From Frankiaceae bacterium (GTDB lineage: Bacteria; Actinomycetota; Actinomycetes; JADGOV01): a stretch of DNA of 46,698 nucleotides. The position numbers and the translations under genes are program-made. Shown piece after piece: positions 7,033-46,080 of the stretch. Position 1 is the first letter of the stretch; each line of letters opens with the position of its first letter. The DNA lies in assembly GCA_040002735.1 (NCBI GenBank), contig JBDUDX010000093.1, forward strand, positions 1 through 46,698, given 5' to 3'. Under the pieces are notes generated by a model. The model was given only the letters and a program-made list of their open reading frames with translations, ran no database searches and was not told the origin of the DNA.

Positions 7033-7089
7033 GCGTTACGCCACAAGCACTGAGCCAGGCGGAGGCAGGCAGCCGTACTTCCTGCATCC

Positions 7090-7783: not shown

Positions 7784-7803
7784 GAGAACTGTCGCCCAGG
7801 AGC

Positions 7804-8835: not shown

Positions 8836-8867
8836 CGTTTTGCCTCCTGTCGTCGGCTGGCTGGCGC

Positions 8868-9794: not shown

Positions 9795-9806
9795 GGGGCT
9801 CCTTTG

Positions 9807-10358
9807 CTAGATCTGATAATCGAGGGGTTGGCGGCTGTTCAGTCGTCGCCCGCGCATGTGCGACGGCGGGGCACTCACGGTGGTGTCCGGGGGTACGTCG
9901 GCGACGACCAGGGCATGCGCCCCGATCCGACTGGAGCTTCCGATCGTGACCGGGCCGAGGACCGTAGCACCGACCGACAGCGTGACGGAGTCCCCGATGG
10001 TCGGGTGCCGCTTGGCGCCTTTCAGATCGGTCCAGAAGCCACGTGCGCCGAGCGTGACGCCCTGAAAGATGCTGACGTCGTCGCCGATTTCCGTGGTCTC
10101 ACCGATTACCACGCCGGCGCCGTGGTCGATGAAGCAGCGCTGCCCGATCCGCGCGCCGGGGTGGATCTCGATACCGGTGAGCAGCCGTGACGTCTGGGAG
10201 AGCAATCGGGGCAGGAACGGAATGCCGTTTCGGTACATCCGGGAGGCAACCCGGTGCGTCACCAGGGCCCATACGCCCGGATAGAGCACCGCCTCGGCCG
10301 CGCTGATGCCGTGCAGCGCCGGATCACGTTGATATGCGGTACGGAGTTCGGCGAGCAT
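9807..10358 (-). CDS. cysE: Serine O-acetyltransferase
   Basis: Hexapeptide-repeat acyltransferase with CysE features (YPGVWALVTHRVASRMY, GIEIHPGARIGQRCFIDHGAGVVIGETTEIGDDVSIFQGVTLG, RHPTIGDSVTLSVGATVLGPVTIG). It ends 12 nt upstream of cysK. Confidence 0.85.
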   Translation of the reverse strand: MLAELRTAYQRDPALHGISAAEAVLYPGVWALVTHRVASRMYRNGIPFLPRLLSQTSRLLTGIEIHPGARIGQRCFIDHGAGVVIGETTEIGDDVSIFQGVTLGARGFWTDLKGAKRHPTIGDSVTLSVGATVLGPVTIGSSSRIGAHALVVADVPPDTTVSAPPSHMRGRRLNSRQPLDYQI

Positions 10359-10618
10359 GCGAGCCCTCTTTGCAGGTCATCAGGCGGACAGGTCGGCATG
10401 TCAACGCCGGACCTGCCCGAGGCCCTGGAGAGAGTTAGGGGGTAACGGTCAGCTGCCGGCGACAGAGCGCCGACAGCGCTCGTCGTAGACCCGGCGCACG
10501 GAGAACCCGCTCAGCGGCACGGCGTATCCCTGCCGTTGCATCGGCCCGTTCGCCAGCAGCAATCGCACCGGGAAAGTATAGGTGGGCGGTCCCGGTCGAG
10601 CAGCGCCGGGTGGCGGGG

Positions 10619-26736: not shown

Positions 26737-27042
26737 GCCCACCGTGCGGGCGGGCGGGGAGTTGGGCCGATGAAGCCATTTCCCACAAGAACGGCACCGC
26801 TACCGGCTACGTTGTGATCAACAACACCTGCAACCGACTGCCCGGGGGGGTCCCAGCACCGGCCCCAAACCGCGGCGAGTTCTGCTCGGCGGGTACGCCT
26901 CCAGGAGCAGCGCGGCTGCATTCTCCGAAACTGGGCCGCGCCCCAATAGGCCGGTTGGCCCTGCAGCCGGGCAATGCGCCGCCGATAACACCGAAGCCGG
27001 TGGTCCATACCCCCGCGCAAGCCAGCTTTGAGGAGATCCGAC

Positions 27043-29151
27043 ATGCCGGTGTACCGACCCGTCGTACTCGCCGGTGGCCTGCTCGCCGGCGTGCTCAGCC
27101 TGAGTCCGGCCGCTGCCGGGGCCGCCACTGCGGGCGGCGCCGCGAGCCAGCCGGTGACGCTGCGCGGCACGTACCAGTTGCTCGTCGCCGACACCGTTGC
27201 CGGGTCCGCGTCCCCGCGGACGGCCGTCGTGCCGGCGCAGGCCGGGCACAGGTACCGCACGGAACTCCGGGTCGGTTCCCAGACCTACCACCTGCGCCTG
27301 CCGGCTGGGGTGAAGCTGCGCGGCGGGGCCGGGGTCCAGGTCACCGGCCGACTCGCCGGGGACACGCTGACGGCGACCTCCGTCGCACCGGTCGCCGCCC
27401 TGAGCGAACCGCTGGCGGCCACCACGCAGAACACCAACGTGCTGGTGATTCTCGCCCAGTGGCACGGCGCCGACACGACGACTCAGGCTTCGGCAGCCCA
27501 GCAGATGTTCACCAATTCGTCCAACTGGTACTCCACCGCCTCGCACGGCGCCCTGACCCAACACGGCGTGGTGACTCCGTGGTTGGCGATCAGGGGTCCG
27601 TCGAACGAAAAGTGCTACGCCGACAGCGACGCGATCCTGAGCCAGGCCGAATCGGCCGCCAGCCTGCGCGGGTACAACATCGGGGACTACGACCGGACGA
27701 TCGTGTATTTCCCGTACGACATCCGGCCCGGCTCGGATTGCGTCGGGCTCGCCGGTTGGGCCTACCAACCCGGATCCAAGGTGTGGATCAACGGCAACAT
27801 GAACACCCGCGCGCTGGTCCACGAGCAGGGCCACAACTACGGGCTGGCGCACGCCCACTCCTACGCCTGTCAGACCGGCGTACTGACCGGCGCCTGCACG
27901 TTCGGTGAGTACGGCGACGACTACGACGCCATGGGGGCCTCCCGGCTGATCGCCCAGTTCAGCGCCAAGCAGGAGTACCAACTCGGTTGGCTGCCGGCCA
28001 CCACGCTCACCGCAGGCGGTTCGGCGACGCTGGCGCCGCTGGAGGAACCCACCGGTATCCGCGCGATCGTGGTGCACGCCACGCCCACCCGGGACTACTG
28101 GGTGGAGTACCGCCAGCCGGTGCGTGACGACGTAAACCTGCCGATCGGGGCAACCAACGGCGTACTGATCCACCTGGTGGATCACACCCTCAGCTCCCAG
28201 GATGGCTACACCTACGGTCCGGCCCTGCTGGATCTCAGCCCGGCCGACCACTCGCTCACCGACGCGACCCTGAAGGCCGGCCACAGCTGGAGCACCCCGG
28301 AGGGTCTCCGGTTTGCGGTCGGCGCGGTTACCCCCAGCGCGGCGACCGTGTCAGTGGGCTCCGCACGCCCGGCCGCCGGGGACTTCACCGGCGACGGCCG
28401 CGCCGACGCGGCGGTCTACCGGCCGGGTACCGGCACCTGGTGGATCTCCGGCGGAACCGGTGGTCCGTACGGCGCCACCACCGACGTGCCGGTGCCGGCG
28501 GACTACAACGGCGACGGGCGTACCGACCTCGCCGTCTGGCGACCCTCCACCGGCGCGTGGTTCGTCCGCGGCATCGCCGCGGTTACCTGGGGCCGGAGCG
28601 GCGACATCCCGGTACCGGGGGACTACAACGGCGACGGCCGCGCGGACTTCGCGCTGTACCGGCCGAGCACCACCAGCTGGTTCATCCGGGGCGCTGCGAC
28701 GGTGAGCTACGGGGCCGCCACCGACGTGCCGGTGCCCGCGGACTACAACGGCGACGGGCGTACCGACCTCGCCGTCTGGCGACCCTCCACCGGCGCATGG
28801 TTCGTCCGCGGCGCCGCAGCGGTCACCTGGGGTCAGCGGGGTGACATCGCGGTGCCCGGGGACTACAACGGGGACCGCCGCAGTGACTTCGCCGTCTGGC
28901 GTCCGCCGGTCGGCTCCGAAAAGGGTACCTGGTTCGCCCGCGGCGGAACTGCCGTCCCGTTCGGCTCGGTCGGCGACAAGCCGAGCCCGGGTGACTTCAC
29001 CGGCGACGGCCGGACGGACCCCACGGTCTGGTCACCGCCCAGCGGAGCGTGGACCATTCTGAACGCCCCGACCTTCTCCTATGGGCTTCCCGGTGATATC
29101 CCGGTTCAGTTGCCGGCCTCGATCCGGCTCACCCAGCTGGGCAGCCGGTAG
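27043..29151 (+). CDS. Secreted metzincin-type zinc metalloprotease (gametolysin/M11-like) with six C-terminal FG-GAP/VCBS repeats
   Basis: ATG 27043 follows GAGGAG. Signal peptide (VVLAGGLLAGVLSLSPAAAGAA). Extended zinc motif HEQGHNYGLAH (HExxHxxGxxH). The C-terminus has six units of the type GDYNGDGRTDLAVWRPSTGAWFVRG. Confidence 0.75.
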   Translation: MPVYRPVVLAGGLLAGVLSLSPAAAGAATAGGAASQPVTLRGTYQLLVADTVAGSASPRTAVVPAQAGHRYRTELRVGSQTYHLRLPAGVKLRGGAGVQVTGRLAGDTLTATSVAPVAALSEPLAATTQNTNVLVILAQWHGADTTTQASAAQQMFTNSSNWYSTASHGALTQHGVVTPWLAIRGPSNEKCYADSDAILSQAESAASLRGYNIGDYDRTIVYFPYDIRPGSDCVGLAGWAYQPGSKVWINGNMNTRALVHEQGHNYGLAHAHSYACQTGVLTGACTFGEYGDDYDAMGASRLIAQFSAKQEYQLGWLPATTLTAGGSATLAPLEEPTGIRAIVVHATPTRDYWVEYRQPVRDDVNLPIGATNGVLIHLVDHTLSSQDGYTYGPALLDLSPADHSLTDATLKAGHSWSTPEGLRFAVGAVTPSAATVSVGSARPAAGDFTGDGRADAAVYRPGTGTWWISGGTGGPYGATTDVPVPADYNGDGRTDLAVWRPSTGAWFVRGIAAVTWGRSGDIPVPGDYNGDGRADFALYRPSTTSWFIRGAATVSYGAATDVPVPADYNGDGRTDLAVWRPSTGAWFVRGAAAVTWGQRGDIAVPGDYNGDRRSDFAVWRPPVGSEKGTWFARGGTAVPFGSVGDKPSPGDFTGDGRTDPTVWSPPSGAWTILNAPTFSYGLPGDIPVQLPASIRLTQLGSR
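28378..29100 (+). repeat. Six tandem ~120-bp coding repeats (FG-GAP units); units 2 and 4 are nearly identical at the DNA level
   Basis: gactacaacggcgacgg recurs at 28501, 28621, 28741 and 28861. 28474..28572 and 28714..28812 differ at 3 of 99 positions and lie exactly 240 bp apart. Confidence 0.85.
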
Positions 29152-33777: not shown

Positions 33778-35436
33778 GTGAGGCTCGACGCCAACGAGAA
33801 GGTCTTCGCCAACTATCTCGAGGCGGCGACCGCATTCTGGCGGCATAGCGTCCTGCCCGCCGCGGCCGGCGATCCCACCATCCTGGCGGAACTGTTCCCC
33901 GAGGACCTACGGGTGACCCTGCGCAACCTCACCTTGGCAAATGCGCTGCGCCGCTTCCAGCCAGCCCGCATCGTCGTGCTCACCGGGCGGGTCGACGGCT
34001 GGCACACCCGGGTATGGCCGGGTTTCGACGCCGACCGGGTGCGGGCGATGGCGACCGCGTTCGGTGCCAACGAGATCGTCGACATCAGGACACTGCTGGA
34101 CCGCGCGCCGGCGGGCGATGCGCGGTCGGAACGCCCGGACGTCGAAACTGACGCGGAGACTGACGTGGAGACTGTGGTCGCCGCCACGGCGCTGCGGTTG
34201 TGGCGGGCCCCGCGCCTCGAGCCGGCGCAAGCGGCCGGCCAGGACTACGCCAGGCTGCGGGAGCGGGGCGAGCGGTGGGCAGCGGCGCTGTCGGGTTTGT
34301 TCGCCGAGATGCGCCCGATCGCCTTCATCACCAGCCACGTCGACTATGACCTGTGGGGCCTGGCGGTGGAGACCGCCCGCCGCTGCGCCGTGCCGGTGAT
34401 ACACGTTCAGCAGACCGGCAATCTCAAGGCGTACGCGCTGTGGCCCGAGCATGATCGCGGGGAGGGGCCTTTCCGCGCGGAGATCACCCGTCAGGTGGGT
34501 GCGGTCTTCCAGCAACAGGTGTGGCCGTTGCGCGAGGAGATCCGGCGCAGCGCCGAGTTGGTGGTACATCGGTCGAAGTACAACCTCGGCCGTCCGTCCT
34601 GGTGGCGCAGCACCGCGAACGCGTGGGTACAGCTGGACAACGTGACCCAGCGCCAGCAGGTGCGCGCTCATGTGGCGGCTCGCCTCGGTTGGGATCCCGA
34701 GTTGCCGGTCGTGACGGTCTATAACCACGCCATCTCCGACGCACTGGGCACGAACCGCGAGGTCTTCCCCGACCTGGCCACCTGGTTCGAACGGACCGCG
34801 GAGTACGCAAGCGGCCGGACCGACGTCAACTGGCTGCTCTTGGATCACCCTTCGCAGGCGTTGTACGACGAGACCGGCTTCTTCGCCACGCTGGCCGGGA
34901 AACACGCCCACGACGCGCATCTGGTCTTCCGGCCGAGCGAGGCGCTCAGCAAGAACGCGATCTGGTCGCTCACCGACCTCGGCGTGACGGTGCGGGGCAG
35001 CGTGAGCAACGAGCTGCCGGCGTACGGCATACCGGTCCTGCAGGCGGGCTGGTCGGAGTGGAGCGCCTGCGGCCTGAGCCTCGTGGCCACCGACGAGGCG
35101 GACTACTGGCGCCTGCTCGAGGACTCCCTCGGCCGACTGTGCCGCGACGAGCCGGTGATCACCGAGGAACAAGTGCAGCGGGCCCGGTTGTGGATGTGGC
35201 TGTATCGGGCGGCCGCCGACGTGGTCAGCCCGCTCGTACCGCACTGGGAGAACCTCACGACCGACGAGGTGCTGCTGTTCCTTTCGGTCACCATGCGCCA
35301 CGTGGAAAGCGACGGGGACGCCCTGTTTCTCGCGGTACGTCGGATGTGGAGGAATCAGGAGCCGCTGCTCAGCGGGCTCGATCTCACCTCCCCGGCGGAT
35401 GTGGTCGCGGCCGTGTTGCCGGCCACCAGCCAATGA
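33778..35436 (+). CDS. Hypothetical protein, possibly KpsS/KpsC-like capsule-polysaccharide biosynthesis (Capsule_synth-like) transferase
   Basis: ORF 33778..35436 (GTG after GAGGGGTGA) with strong G/C third-position bias. The C-terminal half resembles the Capsule_synth logic (VVTVYNHAISDALG, WLLLDHPSQ, VTVRGSVSNELPAYGIPVLQAG). The functional call is weak. Confidence 0.55.
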   Translation: MRLDANEKVFANYLEAATAFWRHSVLPAAAGDPTILAELFPEDLRVTLRNLTLANALRRFQPARIVVLTGRVDGWHTRVWPGFDADRVRAMATAFGANEIVDIRTLLDRAPAGDARSERPDVETDAETDVETVVAATALRLWRAPRLEPAQAAGQDYARLRERGERWAAALSGLFAEMRPIAFITSHVDYDLWGLAVETARRCAVPVIHVQQTGNLKAYALWPEHDRGEGPFRAEITRQVGAVFQQQVWPLREEIRRSAELVVHRSKYNLGRPSWWRSTANAWVQLDNVTQRQQVRAHVAARLGWDPELPVVTVYNHAISDALGTNREVFPDLATWFERTAEYASGRTDVNWLLLDHPSQALYDETGFFATLAGKHAHDAHLVFRPSEALSKNAIWSLTDLGVTVRGSVSNELPAYGIPVLQAGWSEWSACGLSLVATDEADYWRLLEDSLGRLCRDEPVITEEQVQRARLWMWLYRAAADVVSPLVPHWENLTTDEVLLFLSVTMRHVESDGDALFLAVRRMWRNQEPLLSGLDLTSPADVVAAVLPATSQ

Positions 35437-36422
35437 GGGGGCGGGACGCGGGGCTTCGGCTGTCCACCTCCTACGACGACGTCGTGCACCCGCGGCCGCT
35501 ACCCGTCAGCTTTACGCGCGGGGACGACCCGGCCGTCCAGTTGATCGACGGATTCGTCCGCGGCCGGCAGAGCCTCGGACGATTCGCGGTGGCAACGGGC
35601 CTGGTGGGGTTTCGGGTGGCTGCCGACGCGCGGCCGGTCCGGGTCACGGTCCAACTCCGAGCCGACGAAGTGTCCGCGAAGTACTGGACGGGTCGCGTCG
35701 CTGAGCCGCTCGGCGTGGCCGGCGACCCCTCCGCCCCTCGGGTGCTGCAACTGAAGAGCCAGGGGCGGGTACGGGGGGCGGTACTGCTGTGCCGGGCGCC
35801 GTGGGCAGCGGAGGGCACCCCGGTACGCGGTGCGCTCCGCTTCGGCCTGGCACCGGAGGAGTTGCCGGCGGATGGGCTGCTCTTGATCGAGGTCGCCGAT
35901 GCCCCCGGACTCGCCGTCGGCGAGGGATCTCCGCTGCTGCCGCATGCCGCGGTCGGCGTGGAACCCACCGAGGTCGCCGTCGAGACCGCCGGGATGGCGC
36001 AGCCGCCGCCCCGCGGAACGCTGGACGCGGTCACGGCGGAGCGGCACGGCTGGTTGGCTACCGGTGACCTTCCTCCCCAGGAGGGCGTGGGGGCGCGGAC
36101 GGTGCGCTCCGGCGTATTCCTCCTCGATCTGCCGGCCCAGGACCGTCGACCCGGCGCGGTGACGGTCTCGCTGAGCCCGCGCAACCAGCCCGCGGCAACC
36201 ACCGGCAAGGCAGGTTGGCGCACACCCTCCGTCGGCGCGACGCTGCACGCCAAGGCCGTATCGATGATCGATGGCTCCGCCGTCGGTACCGAGTTGTCGA
36301 CCAAGGGCGACAGCACCCGGCTCACGGTGTGCGGGCCGGTTCCGGGGGCGGTACGCGTACATCTCGCCGGCGCGGAAGCCTCGAACTGGAACATCACGAC
36401 GGTGACCGGCTATGACGGCTGA
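35433..36422 (+). CDS. Hypothetical cytoplasmic protein (329 aa), no recognisable family
   Basis: ATG 35433 overlaps the upstream stop (ATGA). G/C third-position bias is high (3 of the first 38 codons end in A/T). No signal peptide or TM segment; Val/Ala/Gly/Arg-rich, beta-like. Confidence 0.7.
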   Translation: MRGRDAGLRLSTSYDDVVHPRPLPVSFTRGDDPAVQLIDGFVRGRQSLGRFAVATGLVGFRVAADARPVRVTVQLRADEVSAKYWTGRVAEPLGVAGDPSAPRVLQLKSQGRVRGAVLLCRAPWAAEGTPVRGALRFGLAPEELPADGLLLIEVADAPGLAVGEGSPLLPHAAVGVEPTEVAVETAGMAQPPPRGTLDAVTAERHGWLATGDLPPQEGVGARTVRSGVFLLDLPAQDRRPGAVTVSLSPRNQPAATTGKAGWRTPSVGATLHAKAVSMIDGSAVGTELSTKGDSTRLTVCGPVPGAVRVHLAGAEASNWNITTVTGYDG

Positions 36423-36446
36423 AATCCCGCCGTCAACAGGAGACCT

Positions 36447-38741
36447 GTGGCGCAGGTGACCCTGGCCGGGTCGGCGGCCGCGCCCGGCAGCGCCCCCCCG
36501 AAGGCCCGACGTTTCCCGGGCCTGCTCGCCGGGTGGTCCCCGGTACTCGCGGCCGGGGGCTTGCTGCTTCAGGCCCTTCGCGCCGGGCTGCCCGCGTCGA
36601 GCGCGGGACGCGCCCTCGCCGCCGTGCTTGTCACCCAGATGCTTCCCGGCGTGTCGCTGTGGCGCTGCGTACGGCCGCTGCGCGGCTGGTGGATCGAAGA
36701 CGTCGCGATGGGTTTCGCGCTGGGCGTCATGATCGCCGTCCCGGCGCAGACACTCGCCGGCCTCACCGGGATACCCGCGATCGCCGGGGGCTTCGGGCCA
36801 GCGGTCGCGGCCGCCCTCTGGGCGATACCGGGCACCCGGCACCGCATTCGGGAAGCCATCACCGAGCCGCTCCCGATGTGGTGGGCACCGGCGGTGGCTG
36901 CGGTGTCGCTGTTCGGCGTCACGCAGCTGCGGTCGGCGTATCGGCTCACCCCGCTGAGCTGGCCGGCCGGCTTCCGCACCTCCTACGTCGATACCTACTT
37001 CCACCTGTCGCTGGCTGCGGAGTTGGCCCACCGCGGTCCGACAACGTTCCCCTGGGTAGCCAGTGAGCCGTTGGCGTACCACTGGTTCAGTCACGCCTGG
37101 ATCGCCCAAGTCTCGGTCGCCTCCGGCGCTCCGCTGGACGAGGTGCTGCTGCGGTTCACGCCCGCGCTGATGCCGCTGCTGGTGGCCTTCGTGGTCGCCG
37201 CGGCAGCTCTGCGACTCACCGGCCGCGCATGGGCCGGGCCCCTCGCCGCGCTACTCACCCTGGCCGGCGGCGACCTCAACGTGTTCGGCAAGGCATCTCC
37301 GGACGACTACAGCCACGCCGTTGACGCGCTGTCGCCGAGTCTCGGCCTCGCCGCCCCCTCCCTGATCGCGGTGGTGGTAGTGATCGGGCTGTACTGGGGG
37401 GGGCAGATGCGCGGCGGCGGTCTGCTGCTCGTTCCGGTGCTGACGCTGATGGCGACGGGGGCCAAGGGCTCGGCAACGCCGCTGCTCCTGGCCGGGCTGG
37501 TGCTCGCCGCCGCCGCCATGCTGGTGGCGAACCGGTCGGCGCTTCGGTCGGTGCTGGTTCCGCTCGGTCTGGTGCTCGGCGCGCTGGCGCTGGCGGTGGT
37601 GGTGGTCTTCCGCGGTTCGGAGCCCGGCCTGCACTTCGCGCCGCTGGCCGCCCTCCGGCAGACGCCGGCCGCCATCTGGTTCGGGGGCGCGCGCGGCGCC
37701 GGCATGCTCGCCGTCGTGGCGGTCGTCACGATGGCCGCCGTCCTGTCCCGTGGACTCGGAGTGCTCGGCGCGCTCGGTAGCCGAGCTGGCCGGCGCGATC
37801 CGCTGCCGTGGCTCTTCGCCGGGGCGGGCCTGGCCGCGGCCGGTGCGGTGGTGACGCTGTCCCATCCCAGCCTCAGTCAGTGGTACTTCGCTCGCAGCGC
37901 CGCACCGCTGCTGGCGCTCGGGTCCGCTGTGGGTTTGGTGGCGTTGGCGGACCGGCTGGGTCCCCGGATGGGCCCGGCCGCGGTGGTCGGCGTGCTCGCC
38001 GGCCCGGCGTTGTGCCTGCTGCCAGCGGCCGTCTTCGGGTCAGTGACCCCAGGCTCCGGTCTGCCCCGGGCGGCGCTGTTGGTGGGCGTAGCCGGGGTTG
38101 TCCTGATCTCGGCGGCTGGCGCTGTGGCCGCGGGATCGGCCCGCGGCCGGGTTGCGCTGGCCGGCACGGCGGGGGCAACCGTCCTGGTCGCCGTCCTCGC
38201 CGGTGGGGTCAGCCAGGTTGCGAAGGATCAGGTGACGACGGCACCCGCCCCGCCCTCGAAGCCGGTGTCCGCCTCCGCGCCGCTCGCGGTCTCTCGCGAC
38301 CAGGTCAACGCGGCGCGCTGGATTCGGGACCACTCCGATGTGGACGATCTCGTCATGACGAACCGGCACTGCATCACCCCGGTCGCGCCACGCCGTTGTG
38401 ACAGCCGATGGTGGGTGGTCGCCGCGTACAGCGAGCGGCAGATGCTCCTGGAGGGATGGACCGGCACCCCGCGGGCAGCCGCGATCGGGGACCGTACGAA
38501 GAATCGGGATCACGCCGCGATCTACGTGGACTACTGGCACCCGGACCTGCTGCGGCTCAACGACGGCTTCATCGCCCACCCCGACGCAACCGCCCTGCGC
38601 CGACTGCAAGCGCTCGGCGTGCGCTGGGTCTTCGTCGACCACACCCGGCCGCACGCGACGACACTGGCGCCGTACGCCGTTCCGCGACTGCGTAATCCAG
38701 GCGTGGACGTGTACGAAATACCGCCTACTTCGAAGCCGTAG
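36447..38741 (+). CDS. Polytopic membrane protein (764 aa), GT-C-like glycosyltransferase/polymerase candidate
   Basis: GTG 36447 follows AGGAG. It has more than 12 hydrophobic segments, an early loop motif SYVDTYFHLSLAAELAHRG...LAYHWFSHAWIAQ, and a ~170-aa soluble C-terminal domain (VSRDQVNAARWIRDHSD...GVRWVFVDHT). The fold assignment is inferred. Confidence 0.6.
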   Translation: MAQVTLAGSAAAPGSAPPKARRFPGLLAGWSPVLAAGGLLLQALRAGLPASSAGRALAAVLVTQMLPGVSLWRCVRPLRGWWIEDVAMGFALGVMIAVPAQTLAGLTGIPAIAGGFGPAVAAALWAIPGTRHRIREAITEPLPMWWAPAVAAVSLFGVTQLRSAYRLTPLSWPAGFRTSYVDTYFHLSLAAELAHRGPTTFPWVASEPLAYHWFSHAWIAQVSVASGAPLDEVLLRFTPALMPLLVAFVVAAAALRLTGRAWAGPLAALLTLAGGDLNVFGKASPDDYSHAVDALSPSLGLAAPSLIAVVVVIGLYWGGQMRGGGLLLVPVLTLMATGAKGSATPLLLAGLVLAAAAMLVANRSALRSVLVPLGLVLGALALAVVVVFRGSEPGLHFAPLAALRQTPAAIWFGGARGAGMLAVVAVVTMAAVLSRGLGVLGALGSRAGRRDPLPWLFAGAGLAAAGAVVTLSHPSLSQWYFARSAAPLLALGSAVGLVALADRLGPRMGPAAVVGVLAGPALCLLPAAVFGSVTPGSGLPRAALLVGVAGVVLISAAGAVAAGSARGRVALAGTAGATVLVAVLAGGVSQVAKDQVTTAPAPPSKPVSASAPLAVSRDQVNAARWIRDHSDVDDLVMTNRHCITPVAPRRCDSRWWVVAAYSERQMLLEGWTGTPRAAAIGDRTKNRDHAAIYVDYWHPDLLRLNDGFIAHPDATALRRLQALGVRWVFVDHTRPHATTLAPYAVPRLRNPGVDVYEIPPTSKP

Positions 38742-39330
38742 CGGCCACCACGACGAATTCGTTGTACACGAACAGCCTGCCGGCAAACCGCGGGAACGGG
38801 AACGACAACGTCCGGGTAACCGTGAGCCCCACCCGCTCGCACAGCCCGGAGATCTTGTCGAAATCGAAGTACACCGTATGGGTGGCGTCGGAGGCGAAGC
38901 CGCGCTCCTGCGGGCAGATCAGCAGGGCAACGGCTCCCGGCTCCAGGTAGGGCAAGTACGACTGGACCACCTGCGTCTCCTCGCCGGGCGGCAGGTGTTC
39001 CAGGACGTGCGCCATCAGCATTCCGTCGAAGGTGCCGATGTCGACGGTCGCCAGGTCCTCCGGGGTGTACGCGCGCAGCCCCAGCGATCGGCAGTGCTCC
39101 ACCGAGTACCGGTTGTGGTCCACTCCGACACTGCCGGCGGACAAGGCCGTGAGGTTGCGCCCGATACCGCACCCGACGTCCAGTACTCGGCGGTCCCCCA
39201 GCAGCCGCTGCAGGTTCCAGCGGTACGGCCGCTGAACATCGAGCCTCTGTTTCCAGCCGACCCCGGTCAGCGTGACCAAGCGCTCGGTGTACTCCCGATC
39301 CGCGGTGTCCGGATGCCCCTCGTCGACCAT
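38725..39330 (-). CDS. Class I SAM-dependent methyltransferase
   Basis: VLDVGCGIGRNL (motif I), FDGMLMAHVLEHL, LEPGAVALLICP. Confidence 0.85.
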   Translation of the reverse strand: MVDEGHPDTADREYTERLVTLTGVGWKQRLDVQRPYRWNLQRLLGDRRVLDVGCGIGRNLTALSAGSVGVDHNRYSVEHCRSLGLRAYTPEDLATVDIGTFDGMLMAHVLEHLPPGEETQVVQSYLPYLEPGAVALLICPQERGFASDATHTVYFDFDKISGLCERVGLTVTRTLSFPFPRFAGRLFVYNEFVVVAATASK

Positions 39331-39339
39331 CGCCCGAAC

Positions 39340-40203
39340 CTATCCCGCGGCCGTCCCCGGCTTCTTGCTCGGTATCCGCAACCATAGGTAGGTGGCGCGT
39401 CGGATCAACGCCATCAGCACGACCCGCGCATTTCCGAGCCGCACGTCCCCCGTCGAGAGCAGCGTCGGGTGCTGGGCCCGCAGCGCGCGGTGGAAGTTCT
39501 GCGCCTGCGCCGTCTGTTGCCGGGCGAGCGCCACGCTCCACTGCCCGGCGCTCACCCGGAACGCGGCCAGCGTGACCGGCAGGGCGACGATGTCCGCGTC
39601 GAGCATCAGAGCGATGTAGCTCGCCTGGTCGATGAGGTACGGGAACTCGCTGTTCCACCAGCCGACCCGCTCCAGCGCGGCTCGCCGGACCAGTACGCAG
39701 GCGGGCTCCCCGAAGATGTTGCTGCCCACTCGAACCGCGCGGCGGGCGCCTTCTCGGCCAGTGACCAGCCCTTTCAGCCCGGCCAGCCCCCGGCCCCGCA
39801 CGATGGGTCGGCCGTCGGCGTCGACGATGTCCCGCTGAGCGGCGACGAGGACGGCTGTCGGGTGGGCGTCGAAGGCGGCCACCTGCTGGGACAACGCGGT
39901 CGGTACCAGCAGGTCGTCACCGCACACCAACTTGAGCAACTCGCCGGTGGCGGCCTGACTGACCCGGTTCCAATTACGCAGCGCGCCGCCGCCGGCTTCG
40001 GTGGTCAACAGCCGCACCCGGGGGTGTTCGGCGTAGCGCTGCAGAAGGGCGGCCGTGCCATCCGTCGAAGAGTGGTCGGCGACGATTACCTCGAAGTCGT
40101 CGTAGTCCTGCGCCAACACCGACTCCAGAGTGTCGATGAGATACGCCGCGTTGTTGTATGCCGGGATCACCACGGATACCCGCGGGGCGCTCATGCCCGT
40201 CAC
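39340..40203 (-). CDS. Family 2 glycosyltransferase
   Basis: VSVVIPAYNNAAYLIDTLESVLAQDYDDFEVIVADHSSTDGT, and a DD pair in VCGDDLL. GTG 40203 overlaps the GtrA stop (GTGA); ATG 40194 is an alternative. Confidence 0.85.
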   Translation of the reverse strand: MTGMSAPRVSVVIPAYNNAAYLIDTLESVLAQDYDDFEVIVADHSSTDGTAALLQRYAEHPRVRLLTTEAGGGALRNWNRVSQAATGELLKLVCGDDLLVPTALSQQVAAFDAHPTAVLVAAQRDIVDADGRPIVRGRGLAGLKGLVTGREGARRAVRVGSNIFGEPACVLVRRAALERVGWWNSEFPYLIDQASYIALMLDADIVALPVTLAAFRVSAGQWSVALARQQTAQAQNFHRALRAQHPTLLSTGDVRLGNARVVLMALIRRATYLWLRIPSKKPGTAAG

Positions 40204-40610
40204 CGCCTAAAAGAGAAGTCGCGGTAACCGAAGTAGACCCCGAGCGCCAGGATGGGCGTGATGACCAACTGGGAGCGGATGACCGGGAAGCCGAACTTGG
40301 TCACCGCCACCGTCATCGCCACCATATTCAGCGCAAAGCTGGTGAAGGTCACTGCGGTGAAGCGCCACAGATCCCGAAGAAAATGGCCCCGTACCCGAAA
40401 GACCAGGAACCGGTACAGCAGGAATGCCGTCATCACGTTGCAGAGGTAGGCGGCGACCAGGTTGGCGTGGTAACCGAGATGTTTTCCGGTCAGCGATTGC
40501 CAGCCGACGAACCACAGGGTGGCGGATGCCGTATTGAAGGCACCCACCCCCAGGAAGGCCACTTTCTGGTTGGTGACGATGCGCAGTAGGGGACCGGGTT
40601 CACCGACCAT
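40200..40610 (-). CDS. GtrA-family small membrane protein (lipid-linked sugar translocation-associated)
   Basis: From ATG 40610: 136 aa, four TM segments, FLGVGAFNTASATLWFVGW ... FLVFR ... VITPILALGVYFGYRDFSF. Confidence 0.8.
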   Translation of the reverse strand: MVGEPGPLLRIVTNQKVAFLGVGAFNTASATLWFVGWQSLTGKHLGYHANLVAAYLCNVMTAFLLYRFLVFRVRGHFLRDLWRFTAVTFTSFALNMVAMTVAVTKFGFPVIRSQLVITPILALGVYFGYRDFSFRR

Positions 40611-40638
40611 TCCCGCGGGGGGCGTCGTGGTCACCGGG

Positions 40639-41571
40639 CTATCCGAGGAGCGCACGTCGCGTGGCTTCCAGGGTGGCGGCGACTCCGGTGTCCAACGGCA
40701 CCTGCTGCCGGTAGTCGAGGTCGGGCCGTATGACCGATCGGAGTCGTAGGTCACGAGCCTGCGCCTCGGCCCGCTTCGACGTGGCCAGCACAACCTGCGG
40801 GCGCCGCCGGAAGACGGCGGAACACTTCCCGACGACCGCTCCGAGAGTCACGCTGCGCCCTGATCCATAGATCTTGACGGTATGCCGGGCAGGCATGGCG
40901 CGGGACGACGCCAACGTATCCGCGACCATCGAGGCGGCATCGGAGACGAACAGGTAGTCGCGAATCGTGTCCAGCGGAACGTAGATCCACACCGGCTGGC
41001 GAAGCAGAAATCCACGACACAACTGCGAAACGATGCCCTGCGGTTTGCCGAGGTTCTGTCCTGGCCCGTAGAGGTTGGCGAATCGAGCGCTGATGACCGA
41101 CGCCCCGGTCGCGGCGCTGAAGGCACCGGCCGCGCGTTCGGCGGCGAGTTTGGCCCAGCCGTATGAGGTGAGGGGGGCCACCGGGCTGTGTTCGGTGTGC
41201 GGTGCGCCCGCTGCCCCGGCGTACACCGCACCGGCCGAGGACGCGTGCAGGACTGTGCCCTGCTCGGCCGAGTCGGCGGTCGCCTCCCGCAGCGCCGCCA
41301 GCACCGCACCGAAGACCGCGTTCTCCACCGCCACCACCTCGGAGTTGCTCGCCGTAACGCCGGCCCCGGCGCACCAGAGGAGTTGCCACGGTCCTTGCGC
41401 TGCGCTGTCAACCAGCGCCCGCGCGTCCGCGCGCAGCGCAGCAGCGGCGGCCACCGGATCTGCCCACGGGACCGCAGACGCCCGAACGTCGCCCCCTCGG
41501 CGGCGCAACTCATGCGTGACGGTGCTACCGAGCAGGCCGCGACTGCCGACCACCCAGGTCGGCCCGGTCAT
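40639..41571 (-). CDS. NAD-dependent epimerase/dehydratase (SDR extended family)
   Basis: WVVGSRGLLGSTV (degenerate Rossmann motif), SSAGAVYG, YGWAKLAAE (YxxxK). The start overlaps the upstream GT2 stop (ATGA 41568..41571). Confidence 0.8.
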   Translation of the reverse strand: MTGPTWVVGSRGLLGSTVTHELRRRGGDVRASAVPWADPVAAAAALRADARALVDSAAQGPWQLLWCAGAGVTASNSEVVAVENAVFGAVLAALREATADSAEQGTVLHASSAGAVYAGAAGAPHTEHSPVAPLTSYGWAKLAAERAAGAFSAATGASVISARFANLYGPGQNLGKPQGIVSQLCRGFLLRQPVWIYVPLDTIRDYLFVSDAASMVADTLASSRAMPARHTVKIYGSGRSVTLGAVVGKCSAVFRRRPQVVLATSKRAEAQARDLRLRSVIRPDLDYRQQVPLDTGVAATLEATRRALLG

Positions 41572-42632
41572 CGCGGCCGATCGATGCTGGAGGGAGCCGG
41601 CACATGATCTTCGGGTCGAGTGTTGCGGGCCCGACCGAGCGGCCCGGCGCCGGGGTCGCTGGTGATGAGGTACGCGGGCTTGCCCATCGCCATGTTCACG
41701 CTGACGCCGATGTACTCCGCGATCACGCCGAGGGAGAACAGGATCGCGCCGGTACTCAGCAGAACCACCACCATGGTGGAGGTCCAGCCTCGGACGCCAC
41801 TCCCCGTCGAGCCGGCGAAGAAGATCGTCGAAACCAGGATGTACGCCACCAGCAGCCCACCGAGCAACGCGAACGCCAACCCCAGAATGCTGACGATGCG
41901 CAGCCCTTTCGTGCCGCTGGAGAGCACCATCCGCCAGAAGTGCGAGAGCAGCGTCCGGAGCCGATAGCCGGATCGGCGGTCATGCTCATCGCGCAGGGCG
42001 ACCGGACTGGTGCTCACGCTGCCGGCGATCCAGCCGAGCGCCACGTCCAGGTACACCCCCGACCCGGCGTAGGCCGCAACCGCCCGGCCGGTCTCGCCCA
42101 GGACGAGGCGAAAGCTCTGGTACTCCGACGCCCCCTTCCCCGCCAAGGCCCGGGCCACGATCCACTTCGCTGTTGCGGATGCGGCATTGCGGGCGAAGCC
42201 GTGCGGCGCCGGATTGGTCGGTTGGGCGTAGACCACGCTCGACTGGGTGCGCAGCGCGGTGTCCAGCAGCCCGCCGATGTCGGCCGGATCGTGTTGGCCG
42301 TCCTCGTCCATCGTGACGATCCACTCGCCCCCGCTGGAGGCCATCCCGGCCAGGGTCGCGGCGTGCTGACCGTAGTTGCGGGAGAGCCAGACCGGCCGGA
42401 CCACATCATGCATGACCGCAAGATCGCGGATTACCGCGGCCGAGTCGTCCGGTCCGTGGTCGAAAACGAGCAGCACCTCTTCCACCAGGAAGGGGTGCCC
42501 GTCGGGCGTGTGCTGCGGCTTCGCGAGCGGCCGAATCTCGTCGAGAAGCCGCCGTAAGGTCAACTCGCCTTGGTAGACCGGGATAACGATCGAGACGCGG
42601 TGCGGACGAGCCGCACCCTCGGCGTCATCCAT
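41568..42632 (-). CDS. Polyprenol-phosphate glycosyltransferase (GT2; GtrB/DPM1/ArnC-like) with C-terminal TM segments
   Basis: From ATG 42632: VSIVIPVYQGELTLRRLLDEI, VFDHGPDDS, IVTMDEDGQHDP (DxD), then two TM helices (IVSILGLAFALLGGLLVAYILV, MVVVLLSTGAILFSLGVIAEYI). Confidence 0.8.
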   Translation of the reverse strand: MDDAEGAARPHRVSIVIPVYQGELTLRRLLDEIRPLAKPQHTPDGHPFLVEEVLLVFDHGPDDSAAVIRDLAVMHDVVRPVWLSRNYGQHAATLAGMASSGGEWIVTMDEDGQHDPADIGGLLDTALRTQSSVVYAQPTNPAPHGFARNAASATAKWIVARALAGKGASEYQSFRLVLGETGRAVAAYAGSGVYLDVALGWIAGSVSTSPVALRDEHDRRSGYRLRTLLSHFWRMVLSSGTKGLRIVSILGLAFALLGGLLVAYILVSTIFFAGSTGSGVRGWTSTMVVVLLSTGAILFSLGVIAEYIGVSVNMAMGKPAYLITSDPGAGPLGRARNTRPEDHVPAPSSIDRPR

Positions 42633-42726
42633 CACAACGGCCAAGTGTAAGCGTGCGGCGCCCCGCACACGACGGAGCGACCGACACCCGAAGGTGCCGG
42701 CCGCTCCGTTGCTTACTACGTGCTGG

Positions 42727-45700
42727 TTACGACCCGGCGGGGACGTAACCGAGAACGTCGACAGCAACATCGATCGGCGAACTGTCGCTGTAGAGCGAGA
42801 GCTCACCGTCGGTGCCCAGCTGAACGATGTCGAAGTTCGCGACATCACTGGTCTTGCTGACGTAGTTCAACGTGCTCACCGTCGCCACACCGCTGCCCGT
42901 GGGGTACACCCGCAGGTTTCCGTATCCGGTGCTGCCGGCCTTGTGGATGCCGGTGACGCTCACCAGAACCGCCTGAGCATCAGCCGGGACCCCACCGTGA
43001 CCGGCAACGGGGATGGACATCGCGTGGTTGGCGGTCAGGCTGCCGGTGTCGCGCGTATCCAATATGCGCTTCGGAACCGACGTCACCAGAGTGGATGTCG
43101 CCGGGTAGTACGCGAACGCATCGATGGCCACATTGGCGCTGGCGTGATCAGAGTAGACCCGGATCTTGCCATTTGCCGGCAGGTCCATGACGACGAACGC
43201 CGCCTTGTCCTGACCAACGATGTAGTTGATGTTGCTGGTGTTCGGGAGAGCTGCACCATCCGGGTAAACCCGCATGTTTCCCACCCGATTCGGGTCGATC
43301 GCGGTGATGTTCAATGCGACCGCCTTAGCACCAGGCGCAACGCCGCCGTTACCAGAAACCTGGAACACCTTGCTGGTGTTGGCGGCGATCGGACCGGTAC
43401 TGCCACCCAGACCTGTCCGAGTGTCCGCGACCCGACTCGGCGGGTCGAGTCCCTCGATGTTCGAAACAGGCAGACCGTTCTTAACGGTCCTGCTGGCCTT
43501 GCTGGCTCCTGCAGTCAAGGGAACGGTGCCCATCCTCGGGTAGTAGCCGGCGAAGTCGATGGCAACCGCCGCATTGCCGGTGTCGCTGTAAATCTTCATC
43601 GAGTTGCAGTCAGCCTGTGGGATGACTACGAAGTTGGCGACGTCCTTGCCCTTCTGGTAGTTGATCAGTGACGTATGCGGAACGGTTTCGTTGCCACAGG
43701 CCGGTCCGACCCGGAGGTTACCTGCGCTGGTCGGATTGATCGCCGTGACGTTGAAAGCGTAAGCAGCCGCATCGAAAGGCATGTCCGTACTGCCGTAGTA
43801 GAAGTAGTACAGCGTGTTCCGCACGAGCGTACGCGAGGAGGTGACATCGCCCTGCCCGGTCCGAGTGTCGACGACCCGACGCGGCGTCACCGGGACATAC
43901 TGGCCGCTGTAGGTGATGGTGGCGGCGTCAGAGATGCCGTCAACCGTCGCCGTCACCGTCTGAATACCGACCTGCGTCGACCGCACGTACACGGTCGCCA
44001 CGCCGGTGTTTTCATCCACCGTGGCGGTGGTGGTGCTGGTTCCGAGTGGCTTGCCAGCTGAATCGGTGAAGACACCGACTCCGCTGGTGGTGAAGCTCGC
44101 CGTCTTGCCATACAGCGGGTCGCCATGGGGGTCGGCCAGCGCGACCGATACTTGCTGCGTGTCGGCAGTCCCACCGGTGGCCGGATTCTGCGTGACACCC
44201 GCGTTGGCTGACTTTTCGAAGCCGGACGGCGTGTACGGACTCGTCATGGCGTACGAACCATTGGGGCCGTTGACGTCGACGTTGACCTGGTCCGCTTTGG
44301 CCGTACCGACGACCCAGTATTGATTGACGCTGTCGTCGGCCACATCCGTGCCAGTGCTGGTGAAGGCGCTGACCGACACCTCGTCACTGCCGCCGCTGGT
44401 GGCCGGTCCGACATCGGTGTAGGTGAAGGAAGCTCCGGTGCCGGTGGCGCCGGGATTGGTGCTCGGGTCATTGCGGGTGCCCGTCACGGTCCACACATAG
44501 GTGAGGCCGGTCACTGGGTCGCCGAATTGGTCGGTCACCTTGACCGTGTGGGTGGTGCTGCCCTTAGCTGGTGCGGTGTCCACGTGAGGTGTGATCACCG
44601 CATCAGAAGGCTGCCGAGCCTGCCATGTCACCGATGTGGCGCTGGTGACGCCAGGGTCCCCCACCAGCGATGCCGTCACGATGACGGAGTTTCCTGTCGC
44701 CGGCGTCGAGTTCGCGACCGTCACGACGACCTTGCCCGCGGCGTCGGTCACTCCGGTCGTCGGGCTGACCGAGTACTTCGCGCCCGGTGATGGGGTCGTG
44801 GTGAACGCCACGTTGTAGCCGGCCGCCGGGGTAGTCGCCGCCGTCTTGAGGGTGAAGGTGATCGGGACGCTGGTGGTATCCAGCGGGACGGTGAACGGGC
44901 CGCCGTTGGACAGGCCACCCGGAGAACTAAAGTCGGGCTCGGCAGCCACGACGACGGACGCCGTACCCCTGGGCTCGCCGGTGTCCAGTCCACCAGTGTT
45001 GATGGAGTGGTCACTCTGGTTGACGTACGCCCGCACGGTGTCGGTCCCCACCGTCGTGCCGGTGGCGAAGGTTGCCGTGGTGGATCCGGTGCCATTCGTC
45101 GCGCCCGCAACCAAGACGGCTCCTGACGCGTCGGGTCCGGCGGTCAGTTCGACTACTGGGGTGACGCCGGCAACCGGGTTGCCCTGGGCATTGCGCAGCG
45201 TGATGGTTGCCGACACGGGCTTGCTCGTGAACGCGTTCTGCGTTCCGGGAGTGACGTCGACGCTGGTCACGTCATTGACGCCCGCCGGGTTGACGGTGAG
45301 CAAGCTGGTGCTGGAGATGATGCCTCCGCTGCCATCCGCCGTTGCTTTCAGCGTGAGCGGCCCAGCCACCTTGGATGCGACGTAAACCGTCGCGGCGCCA
45401 GCGGTCGTGGTGCCGAGCCCGTCACCGGTGGTGACCGTGGCGGTGCCGGTGCCCGGGCCCGTGAAGGTGGCGCCCGGTGCTGGCGGCGTTGCCCTGATGC
45501 CGATGTCAGCCGGAAGGGCAGTTGGCTCGGTACCGGCGATCGTCACCGACGCATTCGGGACCGGGCGGCCGGCCGTGTCAGCCGCGGTGACCGTAAAGGC
45601 CTGGTAGCCGCCGACCCCGGCATTGGCCGAGCTTGGAGTCAGGGTAACCGAGTTGACCGCACCAGCGATGGTCAGCTTGGCCGTCGTGTTGGGGTCACCG

Positions 45701-46080
45701 GTCTGGTATGTACCAGTGTTTGCTGCGTCGTAGAAGAAGCGGACGGTGTCGACACCCACGCCGTTGGTGGAATCGTGAGCGACGCTGCAGACGTAGCTGC
45801 CGGCGTTGGGCGGGCATGCCGTACCGGTCAAGGTGCCGTCGGAATCCGGCCCACTCATGACATAGGCAAAGACGCCCTGCGCCGTCGTTGTGCCGTTCAG
45901 CGTGACCCTGAAAGTTGTCGCCGAACTCGGAGTGTTCGCCACGAAGGCTGCGTCAGGCGTGACGCCCAGCGCCGTGGGTTCTGCGGCGGAAGCGCTGGTT
46001 GCCCCAAGGACTGGCACCAACGCCCCTACCGTTGCGACAGCTGCAAAAGCAGCTGCGCGCGTTAGTGAGCTTCTCTTCAT
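42727..46080 (-). CDS. Secreted 1117-aa surface protein: signal peptide, multiple Big_1-like Ig repeats, three C-terminal ~120-aa modules of unnamed family
   Basis: ATG 46080 follows GGAAAGGA. Signal peptide MKRSSLTRAAAFAAVATVGALVPVLGATSASA. Ig-like units show up as FTVTAADTAGRPVPNASVTIAGT, ITLRNAQGNPVAGVTPVVELTAG, VKVTDQFGDPVTGLTYVWTVTG and VALADPHGDPLYGKTASFTTSG. The C-terminus has 3 x (RxxDTR ... NLRVYP ... S.(I/L)NY ... (A/V)IDxxGY). Stop is TAA. Confidence 0.75.
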   Translation of the reverse strand: MKRSSLTRAAAFAAVATVGALVPVLGATSASAAEPTALGVTPDAAFVANTPSSATTFRVTLNGTTTAQGVFAYVMSGPDSDGTLTGTACPPNAGSYVCSVAHDSTNGVGVDTVRFFYDAANTGTYQTGDPNTTAKLTIAGAVNSVTLTPSSANAGVGGYQAFTVTAADTAGRPVPNASVTIAGTEPTALPADIGIRATPPAPGATFTGPGTGTATVTTGDGLGTTTAGAATVYVASKVAGPLTLKATADGSGGIISSTSLLTVNPAGVNDVTSVDVTPGTQNAFTSKPVSATITLRNAQGNPVAGVTPVVELTAGPDASGAVLVAGATNGTGSTTATFATGTTVGTDTVRAYVNQSDHSINTGGLDTGEPRGTASVVVAAEPDFSSPGGLSNGGPFTVPLDTTSVPITFTLKTAATTPAAGYNVAFTTTPSPGAKYSVSPTTGVTDAAGKVVVTVANSTPATGNSVIVTASLVGDPGVTSATSVTWQARQPSDAVITPHVDTAPAKGSTTHTVKVTDQFGDPVTGLTYVWTVTGTRNDPSTNPGATGTGASFTYTDVGPATSGGSDEVSVSAFTSTGTDVADDSVNQYWVVGTAKADQVNVDVNGPNGSYAMTSPYTPSGFEKSANAGVTQNPATGGTADTQQVSVALADPHGDPLYGKTASFTTSGVGVFTDSAGKPLGTSTTTATVDENTGVATVYVRSTQVGIQTVTATVDGISDAATITYSGQYVPVTPRRVVDTRTGQGDVTSSRTLVRNTLYYFYYGSTDMPFDAAAYAFNVTAINPTSAGNLRVGPACGNETVPHTSLINYQKGKDVANFVVIPQADCNSMKIYSDTGNAAVAIDFAGYYPRMGTVPLTAGASKASRTVKNGLPVSNIEGLDPPSRVADTRTGLGGSTGPIAANTSKVFQVSGNGGVAPGAKAVALNITAIDPNRVGNMRVYPDGAALPNTSNINYIVGQDKAAFVVMDLPANGKIRVYSDHASANVAIDAFAYYPATSTLVTSVPKRILDTRDTGSLTANHAMSIPVAGHGGVPADAQAVLVSVTGIHKAGSTGYGNLRVYPTGSGVATVSTLNYVSKTSDVANFDIVQLGTDGELSLYSDSSPIDVAVDVLGYVPAGS

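Follow-up and report, generated by a model that had tools for sequence, protein, structure and literature searches.

A probable six-gene transmembrane glycosylation module of the GtrA/GtrB/GT-C type in a Frankiaceae bacterium

Three-component glycosylation systems are known as GtrA/GtrB/GtrC from Shigella and Salmonella phages, and as CsbB/GtcA/YfhO and GtlA/GtcA/GtlB from Firmicutes (PMC8035078). There is precedent for GT-C glycosyltransferases that carry C-terminal acceptor-binding domains, and for three-component systems with auxiliary epimerases of the short-chain dehydrogenase/reductase (SDR) type (PMC11127046; PMC8035078). Here a locus is described from an uncultured Frankiaceae bacterium, on a stretch of 46,698 nucleotides (contig JBDUDX010000093.1 of assembly GCA_040002735.1; GC content ~69%), which is termed the window and to whose positions all coordinates refer. 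The region from 36447 to 42632 probably constitutes a six-gene, multi-component transmembrane glycosylation module of the GtrA/GtrB/GT-C type, acting on an acceptor in the cell envelope. It includes a 764-amino-acid (aa) polytopic protein which is predicted to have the GT-C fold.

Several described systems come close to this arrangement. In Streptococcus mutans, the Pgf system associates the adhesin genes cnm, cnaB and cbpA with pgfS-pgfM1-pgfE-pgfM2, which encode the GtrB-like PgfS, the epimerase PgfE and GT-C enzymes (PMC5856776; PMC12041528); its targets are Ser/Thr-rich disordered regions (PMC12041528). The pentofuranose system of Citrobacter youngae O1/O2 involves family GT136 and, in O2, an auxiliary SDR epimerase (PMC11127046). 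In Actinoplanes missouriensis, the gsf cluster (AMIS_70380-70480) encodes a 'GtrA-dependent pathway' that is required for normal sporangia, and its authors state that no GT-C is present there (PMC13390465). An initial annotation of the locus, made from the sequence alone, knew of no characterised system with this gene set, which overstated the case in view of the S. mutans Pgf and C. youngae O2 systems. The kind of system is already known; what is new is the GT-C family, its methyltransferase partner and a triple-repeat module found in a neighbouring surface protein. The six genes of the module are as follows.

36447..38741, plus strand: 764-aa polytopic protein, predicted GT-C-fold glycosyltransferase (AlphaFold2 model, Foldseek, conserved residues)
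38725..39330, minus strand: 201-aa class I S-adenosylmethionine (SAM)-dependent methyltransferase (Methyltransf_23, 2.5e-8)
39340..40203, minus strand: 287-aa soluble GT2 of GT-A fold, the second glycosyltransferase (Glycos_transf_2, 5.4e-27)
40200..40610, minus strand: GtrA-family small membrane protein, putative flippase (GtrA_DPMS_TM, 6.3e-10)
40639..41571, minus strand: 310-aa SDR, GalE-like nucleotide-sugar epimerase/dehydratase (Pfam Epimerase, 2.7e-25)
41568..42632, minus strand: ~354-aa polyprenyl-phosphate glycosyltransferase of the GtrB/ArnC/PgfS type (full-length ArnC and PgfS matches)

Like the three-component systems, the locus encodes a polyprenyl-phosphate GT2 with a transmembrane (TM) tail, a GtrA-family protein and a polytopic GT-C together. 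Unlike them, it has a GT-C that lies outside the curated GT-C families, it adds a methyltransferase, a soluble GT2 and an epimerase, and its host is an actinobacterium. With Pgf it shares a GtrB-like synthase, an SDR epimerase and a GT-C beside a surface-protein gene, and PgfS is the second-best NCBIfam match of the synthase. However, PgfM1 and PgfM2 are YfhO-family proteins and the GT-C of the locus is not (no YfhO match in 65 family members at E <= 1), the adjacent 1117-aa surface protein is without Ser/Thr-rich disordered regions, and its linkage to the module is not conserved in the nearest relatives (loci L052 and L053). Mycobacteria use PpgS (Rv3631), the GtrA-like Rv3632 and Rv3779 for the decoration of arabinogalactan with galactosamine, and MtxS/MtxT for the capping of lipoarabinomannan. 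The likeness to these mycobacterial sets lies in the combination of a polyprenyl-phosphate-sugar synthase, a GtrA-like protein and a GT-C that decorates a wall glycan; they differ in that the GT-C of the locus has no detectable sequence relation to the curated mycobacterial GT-C enzymes, and in that the synthase in the window is of the transmembrane ArnC/GtrB type.

As in C. youngae, the donor would be a lipid-linked monosaccharide whose identity is set by a cytoplasmic SDR epimerase, and the GT-C, whose C-terminal domain would here too be extracytoplasmic, could be recognised only from its predicted structure (PMC11127046). The C. youngae system employs a polyprenyl-phosphoribose synthase dependent on phosphoribosyl pyrophosphate, together with a MATE flippase, where the locus has a GT2 synthase and GtrA (PMC11127046). 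The gsf cluster resembles the locus in its GtrA, 2-TM GT2, further GT2s, SAM methyltransferase and 11-TM protein without a recognised domain, whereas its stealth protein, acyltransferase_3 and dehydrogenase have no counterpart here (PMC13390465). The 11-TM protein, AMIS_70420, could itself be a GT-C of this kind that escaped recognition.

Sequence comparison places the 764-aa protein in no described family. It has no Pfam, NCBIfam or PDB sequence match; in particular, no match to YfhO, PMT/PMT_2, ArnT-type, STT3, GT87 or arabinosyltransferase models was found in Pfam or NCBIfam. A profile of 65 family members still found no match in the PDB, where both plain and profile searches with the 764-aa protein and with a neighbouring 552-aa protein returned noise only, and the 65 members gave only sporadic weak matches to domains of unknown function when compared with Pfam at E <= 1. 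The family is termed uncurated on the basis of Pfam and NCBIfam models and PDB sequences. It is nevertheless large: a word-indexed homology search gave 108 full-length actinobacterial homologues, all 'hypothetical proteins', and an exhaustive profile search, counted in cluster representatives at 50% clustering, brought the number to 4,263 with E <= 1e-3, of which 1,523 reach E <= 1e-30. In the literature on actinobacterial and Streptomyces GT-C enzymes and on methylthioxylose/Rv0541c, no characterised member was found.

An AlphaFold2 model built from the family alignment was of high quality (predicted local distance difference test score, pLDDT, 94.6; predicted template modelling score, pTM, 0.94). 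When this model was compared with the PDB using Foldseek, a check that had been set beforehand, all 14 matches at E <= 1e-3 (probability 1.00) were GT-C enzymes, namely human and yeast STT3, PglB, AglB, DPY19, AftA and ArnT; the match that follows them has an E-value of ~0.09. As modelled, then, the 764-aa protein has the GT-C fold, and this part of the initial annotation is borne out.

G68, R73, R131, D182, Y211, R236, S296, K340, N639 and E669 are invariant in the family alignment, and E84, D85, H186, H212, C642 and C651 nearly so, with E84 and D85 conserved at >= 90%. Hydropathy and charge place the first TM helix at residues ~23-45, after K19, R21 and R22, while a less hydrophobic helix at 50-75 resembles a loop helix. 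E84 and D85 stand at the start of the helix after it, and D182 and H186 in the next large loop, a layout which appears to correspond to that of the catalytic residues in the ArnT/PglB/PMT class. The C-terminal soluble domain comprises residues ~600-764, and its conserved cysteines, C642 and C651, would fit an extracytoplasmic location.

The partner enzymes are more readily identified, and Pfam and NCBIfam support the labels given earlier to the minus-strand genes (methyltransferase, GT2, GtrA, epimerase and a GT2 with C-terminal TM helices). The GtrB-like GT2 matches end to end the NCBIfam models of ArnC (5.5e-26) and PgfS (3.7e-22), the latter far under its equivalog cutoff (78.9 vs 500 bits), as well as the PDB structures of ArnC (1e-18) and Synechocystis GtrB (5EKP, 1.5e-13). 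It has a DxD-type motif, DEDGQHD, and two C-terminal hydrophobic helices at ~249-267 and 287-312. The GtrA protein scores 39.7 bits against PF04138 (GtrA_DPMS_TM), for which the cutoff is 26.1. The SDR keeps GxxGxxG-like and YxxxK motifs, and its nearest PDB relatives are MoeE5 (2e-17), 6WJB and 6WJ9 (both uncharacterised structures of the epimerase/dehydratase family) and UDP-glucose 4-epimerases. For the 287-aa GT2, the nearest NCBIfam models are those of polymer-building GT2s of the PgaC, EpsE and TuaG types; its orthologues adjoin GtrA in L030, L051 and L052, and it could alternatively be a second lipid-sugar synthase. The methyltransferase is a generic class I enzyme, for which Methyltransf_11 is also over its cutoff, and a hydropathy scan detected no hydrophobic or transmembrane segment in it.

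The six genes form a conserved unit in which the GT-C gene converges on those for the methyltransferase, soluble GT2, GtrA, epimerase and GtrB-type GT2. In L052 and L053, where the GT-C is 71% identical, the same six genes are found with order and orientation kept. DNA identity to these two loci is 75-79% over 36446-42651 and is seen nowhere else in the window; it sets in exactly at the GT-C start codon. The genes on either side are different: neither the 552/329-aa gene pair that precedes the GT-C gene in the window nor the surface-protein gene is found beside the unit in L052/L053. To its left they have instead a 619-aa protein without a family match and a fragment with a weak match to a group II intron maturase (GIIM), and to its right a plus-strand gene.

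A wider survey of synteny, based on profile searches, covered 51 genomic GT-C loci. Of these, 24 are close (38-54% identity; Kribbella, Actinoplanes, Phycicoccus, Nocardioides and metagenome-assembled genomes, MAGs) and 27 distant (27-32%; Streptomyces, Micromonospora, Rhizocola and others). A GT2 of the polyprenyl-phosphate type lies within 3 kb of the GT-C gene in 31 of the 51 loci (16/24 close, 15/27 distant), and within 500 nucleotides (nt) in 2/24 and 11/27, respectively. In the distant loci the partner is a PgfS/ArnC-type GT2, mostly located directly upstream on the same strand (for example L028, L029, L033 and L041), with a few divergent cases. In the close loci it takes another form: a ~240-aa methyltransferase and a ~250-aa GT2 resembling AglJ, DPM1 (dolichyl-phosphate-hexose transferase) or PpgS are encoded divergently from the GT-C gene, ~1.7 kb upstream of it. 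The AglJ/PpgS-type matches of this short GT2 are weak. The divergent pair is present in 15-16 of the 24 close loci (L001, L003, L005-L007, L010-L012, L014-L016, L019-L021, L055), and in Actinoplanes the GT-C gene is followed by one for GtrA. A tblastn search at 1e-5 had given the impression of close orthologues without partner genes, a sensitivity artefact, since the profile searches found the divergent methyltransferase and short GT2. This persistent pairing with polyprenyl-phosphate-sugar synthases supports the GT-C assignment with independent genomic evidence. Together with the modelled fold, the 31 loci with such a GT2 uphold the earlier proposal of a GtrA/GtrB/GT-C-type pathway.

The least expected feature is the tight linkage of methyltransferase and GT-C across the core clade. 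A methyltransferase gene lies within 500 nt of the GT-C gene in 15 of the 24 close loci and in none of the 27 distant ones. More than one GT-C paralogue is encoded in 9/51 loci. Tandem or clustered paralogues are seen in L018, a Micromonosporaceae MAG with up to four in 22 kb, and in L013, L027, L030 and L051. These arrays resemble those of the embCAB type, which by analogy suggests stepwise assembly of an extracytoplasmic glycan in some lineages.

Gene content, folds and conservation of the module are observed or modelled as set out above, and a plausible sequence of events can be drawn from them. The GalE-like SDR would modify a nucleotide sugar; probably a UDP-hexose, UDP-N-acetylhexosamine or UDP-uronic acid is epimerised at C4. 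The ArnC/GtrB-type GT2 would load the resulting sugar onto polyprenyl phosphate on the cytoplasmic side of the membrane. GtrA would then carry the lipid-linked sugar across, and the 764-aa GT-C would transfer it to an envelope acceptor outside the cell. The soluble GT2 and the methyltransferase may act as tailoring enzymes on the donor or the acceptor, O-methylation being one example, or they may provide a second lipid-linked sugar. As to the acceptor, which like the donor sugar is a matter of inference, we put the chances at about even that it is a wall or membrane glycopolymer, such as a teichoic-, teichuronic- or teichulosonic-type polymer or a lipoglycan.

The module stands between other features, of which the following were included with it in the initial annotation (the hairpin excepted).

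33778..35436, plus strand: 552-aa cytoplasmic protein with a predicted GT-B-like double-Rossmann fold (AlphaFold2 model and Foldseek)
35433..36422, plus strand: 329-aa cytoplasmic protein, partner of the 552-aa protein (ATGA overlap, synteny)
42672..42709, minus strand: GC-rich hairpin, likely terminator or attenuator (17-bp stem, folding compared with shuffled sequences)
42727..46080, minus strand: 1117-aa secreted protein with Ig-like domains and a triple repeat (Big_1 6e-12, signal peptide)

The nine open reading frames (ORFs) described in that annotation were all recovered from the ORF list with the coordinates and start/stop overlaps it had given. Their GC content at third codon positions (GC3) is of the coding type, 0.78-0.89 in the called frames (0.87 for the 764-aa GT-C gene, 0.84 for the 329-aa gene) and much lower in alternative frames. 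From the ORF coordinates, 4-nt overlaps occur at 35433-35436, 40200-40203 and 41568-41571, where ATGA joins the GtrB-like and epimerase genes (41568) and GTGA the GtrA and 287-aa GT2 genes (40200). The convergent methyltransferase and GT-C genes overlap by 17 nt at their 3' ends. For the GtrB-like gene, the most likely start is GTG 42635 or ATG 42632 (354 aa), and a start at 42848 is unlikely: its orthologue is 358 aa long, and the DNA homology between the two does not extend beyond 42651. For GtrA, the start is probably ATG 40610, giving 136 aa, the same length as the orthologue. A simple scan for promoters and terminators gave no signal beyond what shuffled sequences would yield.

Upstream of 33778 there are unrelated housekeeping genes (GDPD esterase, HATPase_c_2-domain protein, permeases, mycothiol S-transferase and others), so that the cluster starts where it had been placed earlier. 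In a JGI contig of 97.4% nucleotide identity, L057, colinearity with the window is confined to the part right of 33609 (L057:6919); on the other side of this junction, genes for GH3, GH26 and SGNH proteins take the place of those for GDPD and HATPase_c_2. The two sequences thus indicate a recent rearrangement breakpoint at ~33609, ~170 nt upstream of the 552-aa gene, and no tRNA gene or repeat marks this junction. A search of the locus for tRNA genes and for long direct or inverted repeats marking an island boundary found none. The idea of a mobile or phage-borne Gtr cassette was rejected, since the search turned up neither an integrase nor a boundary formed by a tRNA or repeat.

The 1117-aa protein had been described as a giant Ig-repeat surface protein, which holds for part of its length. 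A Sec-type signal peptide with an AxA-type site can be read from its translation, and there are five Ig-like stretches, with the Big_1 match, in residues 1-700; the last ~390 residues are of a different nature. Residues ~728-1117 (window 42730-43899) consist of three ~120-aa repeats unlike the Ig domains, with the recurring motifs R[VI]xDTR..G, NLRVYP, NY, ANF.V, YS and D..GYYP, and without a Pfam, NCBIfam or PDB sequence match. The triple repeat is found in 630 proteins at E <= 1e-3. Among the matches listed, these are mostly actinobacterial, with some from Acidimicrobiales and Dormibacteraeota MAGs, and the repeat is fused to SLT, CHAP, NlpC/P60, amidase_2, M23, CAP, GH18, subtilase, esterase, PKD, Fn3 or Big_1 domains, including at least five classes of peptidoglycan hydrolase. 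Since fusion to peptidoglycan hydrolases is typical of wall-targeting modules, the triple repeat is a candidate for an undescribed cell-wall-targeting domain, which would probably serve as the non-covalent wall anchor of the 1117-aa protein; no LPXTG motif or transmembrane anchor was found in the latter. In Jatrophihabitans sp. (L059; JBPCOE010000118.1, 10001-14610), the ribosomal-protein/secY region has an insertion between map (methionine aminopeptidase) and infA. It carries the gene of a triple-repeat protein along with those of a methyltransferase and a 517-aa membrane-type GT2 and a 111-aa ORF, and no GT-C is among the annotated neighbours of the repeat protein.

The gene for the surface protein lies at an edge of the locus, and is not flanked by glycosyltransferase genes on both sides as had been supposed. 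The gap of ~94 nt after its stop codon holds a perfect 17-bp GC-rich hairpin, whose segment has a minimum free energy of -45.4 kcal/mol, compared with -29.5 +/- 3.0 for shuffled sequences (z = -5.3). The hairpin, at 42672-42709, has no U-tail and for this reason was not called by the consensus terminator scan. Judging from the folding, it is likely to terminate or attenuate transcription where the surface-protein gene gives way to the glycosyltransferase operon.

The 552-aa and 329-aa proteins form a module of their own. Neither has a family match in sequence (Pfam and NCBIfam were searched with both, the PDB with the 552-aa protein), and the 552-aa family has >323 homologues at ~50% identity. 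The earlier label 'KpsS/KpsC-like', which refers to the capsule beta-Kdo transferases of GT107, was not supported by sequence, as Capsule_synth is matched neither by the 552-aa protein at E <= 0.01 nor by 44 of its relatives at E <= 1. Its AlphaFold2 model (pLDDT 86.7) is GT-B-like, and Foldseek gives the best E-values to UDP-N-acetylglucosamine (UDP-GlcNAc) 2-epimerases (1e-8), NeuC among them, alongside matches to the GT1 enzyme CalG3, the GT99 3-deoxy-D-manno-oct-2-ulosonic acid (Kdo) transferase WbbB and the capsule polymerase Cps3D; the TM-scores to WbbB, 0.35/0.46, are the highest among the matches listed. On this model the fold is a generic GT-B-like one and not demonstrably that of KpsS/KpsC, and because the best E-values are to UDP-GlcNAc 2-epimerases the protein may be no transferase at all. 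In A. missouriensis (L056; AP012319.1, 462849-480405), genes at 5468-11442 encode a GT2, GNAT, NeuB, the 552-aa homologue, the 329-aa homologue (33% identical) and a 318-aa orphan. The pair, whose genes overlap and are presumably coupled translationally, is regarded as a separate conserved module because A. missouriensis keeps it in this order beside NeuB. It is possibly tied to the synthesis of a nonulosonic-acid (teichulosonic-acid-type) glycan, although the window itself contains no NeuB.

A glycopolymer acceptor has to be weighed against protein O-glycosylation in the manner of Pgf or Pmt, in which the GT-C would target the 1117-aa protein and perhaps other repeat-bearing proteins, as the initial annotation had entertained. 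The gene order invites this reading, with the surface-protein gene directly upstream of the glycosyltransferase genes on the same strand, as does the S. mutans precedent of pgf with cnm/cnaB/cbpA (PMC12041528). The likely terminator, however, falls between that gene and the operon, and the nearest relatives with the complete module, L052/L053, have no such gene beside it. The protein contains 23% Ser+Thr (T 15%, S 8.4%), but no Ser/Thr-rich disordered tract of the kind targeted by Pgf or GtrB-PgtC2: no 30-aa stretch has more than 13 Ser/Thr, these being interspersed with hydrophobic residues, and runs free of hydrophobic residues reach 19 aa at most. Triple-repeat proteins do occur within 10 kb of the GT-C gene in 4/24 close loci (0/27 distant), in the order GT-C, GtrA, repeat protein on one strand in Actinoplanes (L055) and GT-C, GT-C, repeat protein in L018, and in Jatrophihabitans the repeat protein is followed by a methyltransferase and a GT2. 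Nevertheless, the 4/24 stand without a genome-wide background rate and could be near chance; the C-terminal repeat is all that the proteins concerned (L005, L007/L055, L017, L018) have in common with the 1117-aa protein, and a 51%-identical repeat protein (L058) is without glycosyltransferase neighbours. The best Foldseek matches of the GT-C also include protein-acting enzymes, oligosaccharyltransferase (OST)/PglB and DPY19. Protein O-glycosylation is retained as an unlikely alternative, and the case for the adjacent protein as the acceptor is weak; a glycopolymer is more likely to be the acceptor, and the 1117-aa protein probably just adjoins the system, of which it is not demonstrably a part. 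A somewhat slimmer chance is given to the GT-C elongating or branching a glycan outside the cytoplasm from polyprenyl-phosphate sugars, like Emb, Aft and Mpt of Mycobacteriales, instead of adding a single decorating sugar. AftA gives the highest TM-scores (0.40-0.51) among the best structural matches, and tandem paralogues such as the four in L018 recall embCAB, yet the window has a single GT-C copy, its one GtrB-type synthase and one flippase make up the typical layout for side-chain decoration, and no genes for polymer backbone synthesis or export were found within it.

It was also envisaged that all nine genes serve one pathway, with a KpsS/KpsC-like GT-B enzyme building or priming a polymer that the GT-C module decorates. 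The 329-aa and GT-C genes are only 24 nt apart on the same strand and the arrangement is kept in L057, the GT-B-like model with WbbB among its matches is compatible with such a role, and the NeuB, GNAT and GT2 of A. missouriensis suggest glycan chemistry. Against this, the plus-strand run does not hold together as a unit: no homologue of either protein lies within 10 kb of the GT-C gene in any of the 51 loci (0/24 close, 0/27 distant), L052/L053 lack the pair, L057 at 97% identity is too close to inform on conservation, there is no Capsule_synth signal in 44/44 family members, and the 552-aa protein, with its resemblance to 2-epimerases, may not be a transferase. A single nine-gene pathway is therefore improbable, and the 552/329-aa pair and the 1117-aa protein are taken to be separate neighbouring modules. 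An equally speculative notion is that the GT-C and methyltransferase add a possibly methylated sugar to a wall glycopolymer and that this sugar is the ligand of the triple repeat; if true, which we doubt, it would be an actinobacterial counterpart of the anchoring of SLH domains to pyruvylated secondary cell wall polymers. Several points count against the six-gene module as a decorator of a glycopolymer. The TM-scores between the 764-aa model and GT-C enzymes are modest (0.30-0.51), although this is expected between different GT-C families, and the placement of E84/D85 on the outer face is a prediction from hydropathy and the positive-inside rule. The roles of the methyltransferase and second GT2 are guesses. 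The small GtrA profile was insensitive and missed Pfam-annotated GtrA in L055 and L007, so that GtrA counts are lower bounds. Finally, the top structural matches include the protein-glycosylating OST and DPY19, and repeat proteins lie just downstream of GT-C or GtrA in L055 and L018.

Extracytoplasmic glycosylation from polyprenyl-phosphate sugars affects phage receptors, antibiotic susceptibility and the display of surface proteins, and is barely charted in Actinomycetota other than mycobacteria. The locus draws attention to a large GT-C family which curated models do not see, and which is consistently paired with polyprenyl-phosphate-sugar synthases and, in the core clade, also with a methyltransferase. 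Characterisation of one member would allow thousands of 'hypothetical proteins' to be annotated and would probably define a new glycosyltransferase family, as was the case with GT136. The triple repeat, if confirmed as wall-targeting, would help in the annotation of autolysins and surface proteins from actinobacteria. Because the system follows established logic, the advance is incremental rather than conceptual.

Elsewhere in the window, and with no relation to the glycosylation locus, positions 26989-29151 (plus strand) encode a 720-aa protein in which a gametolysin-type M11 peptidase domain is combined with FG-GAP repeats, an unusual combination for a bacterium.

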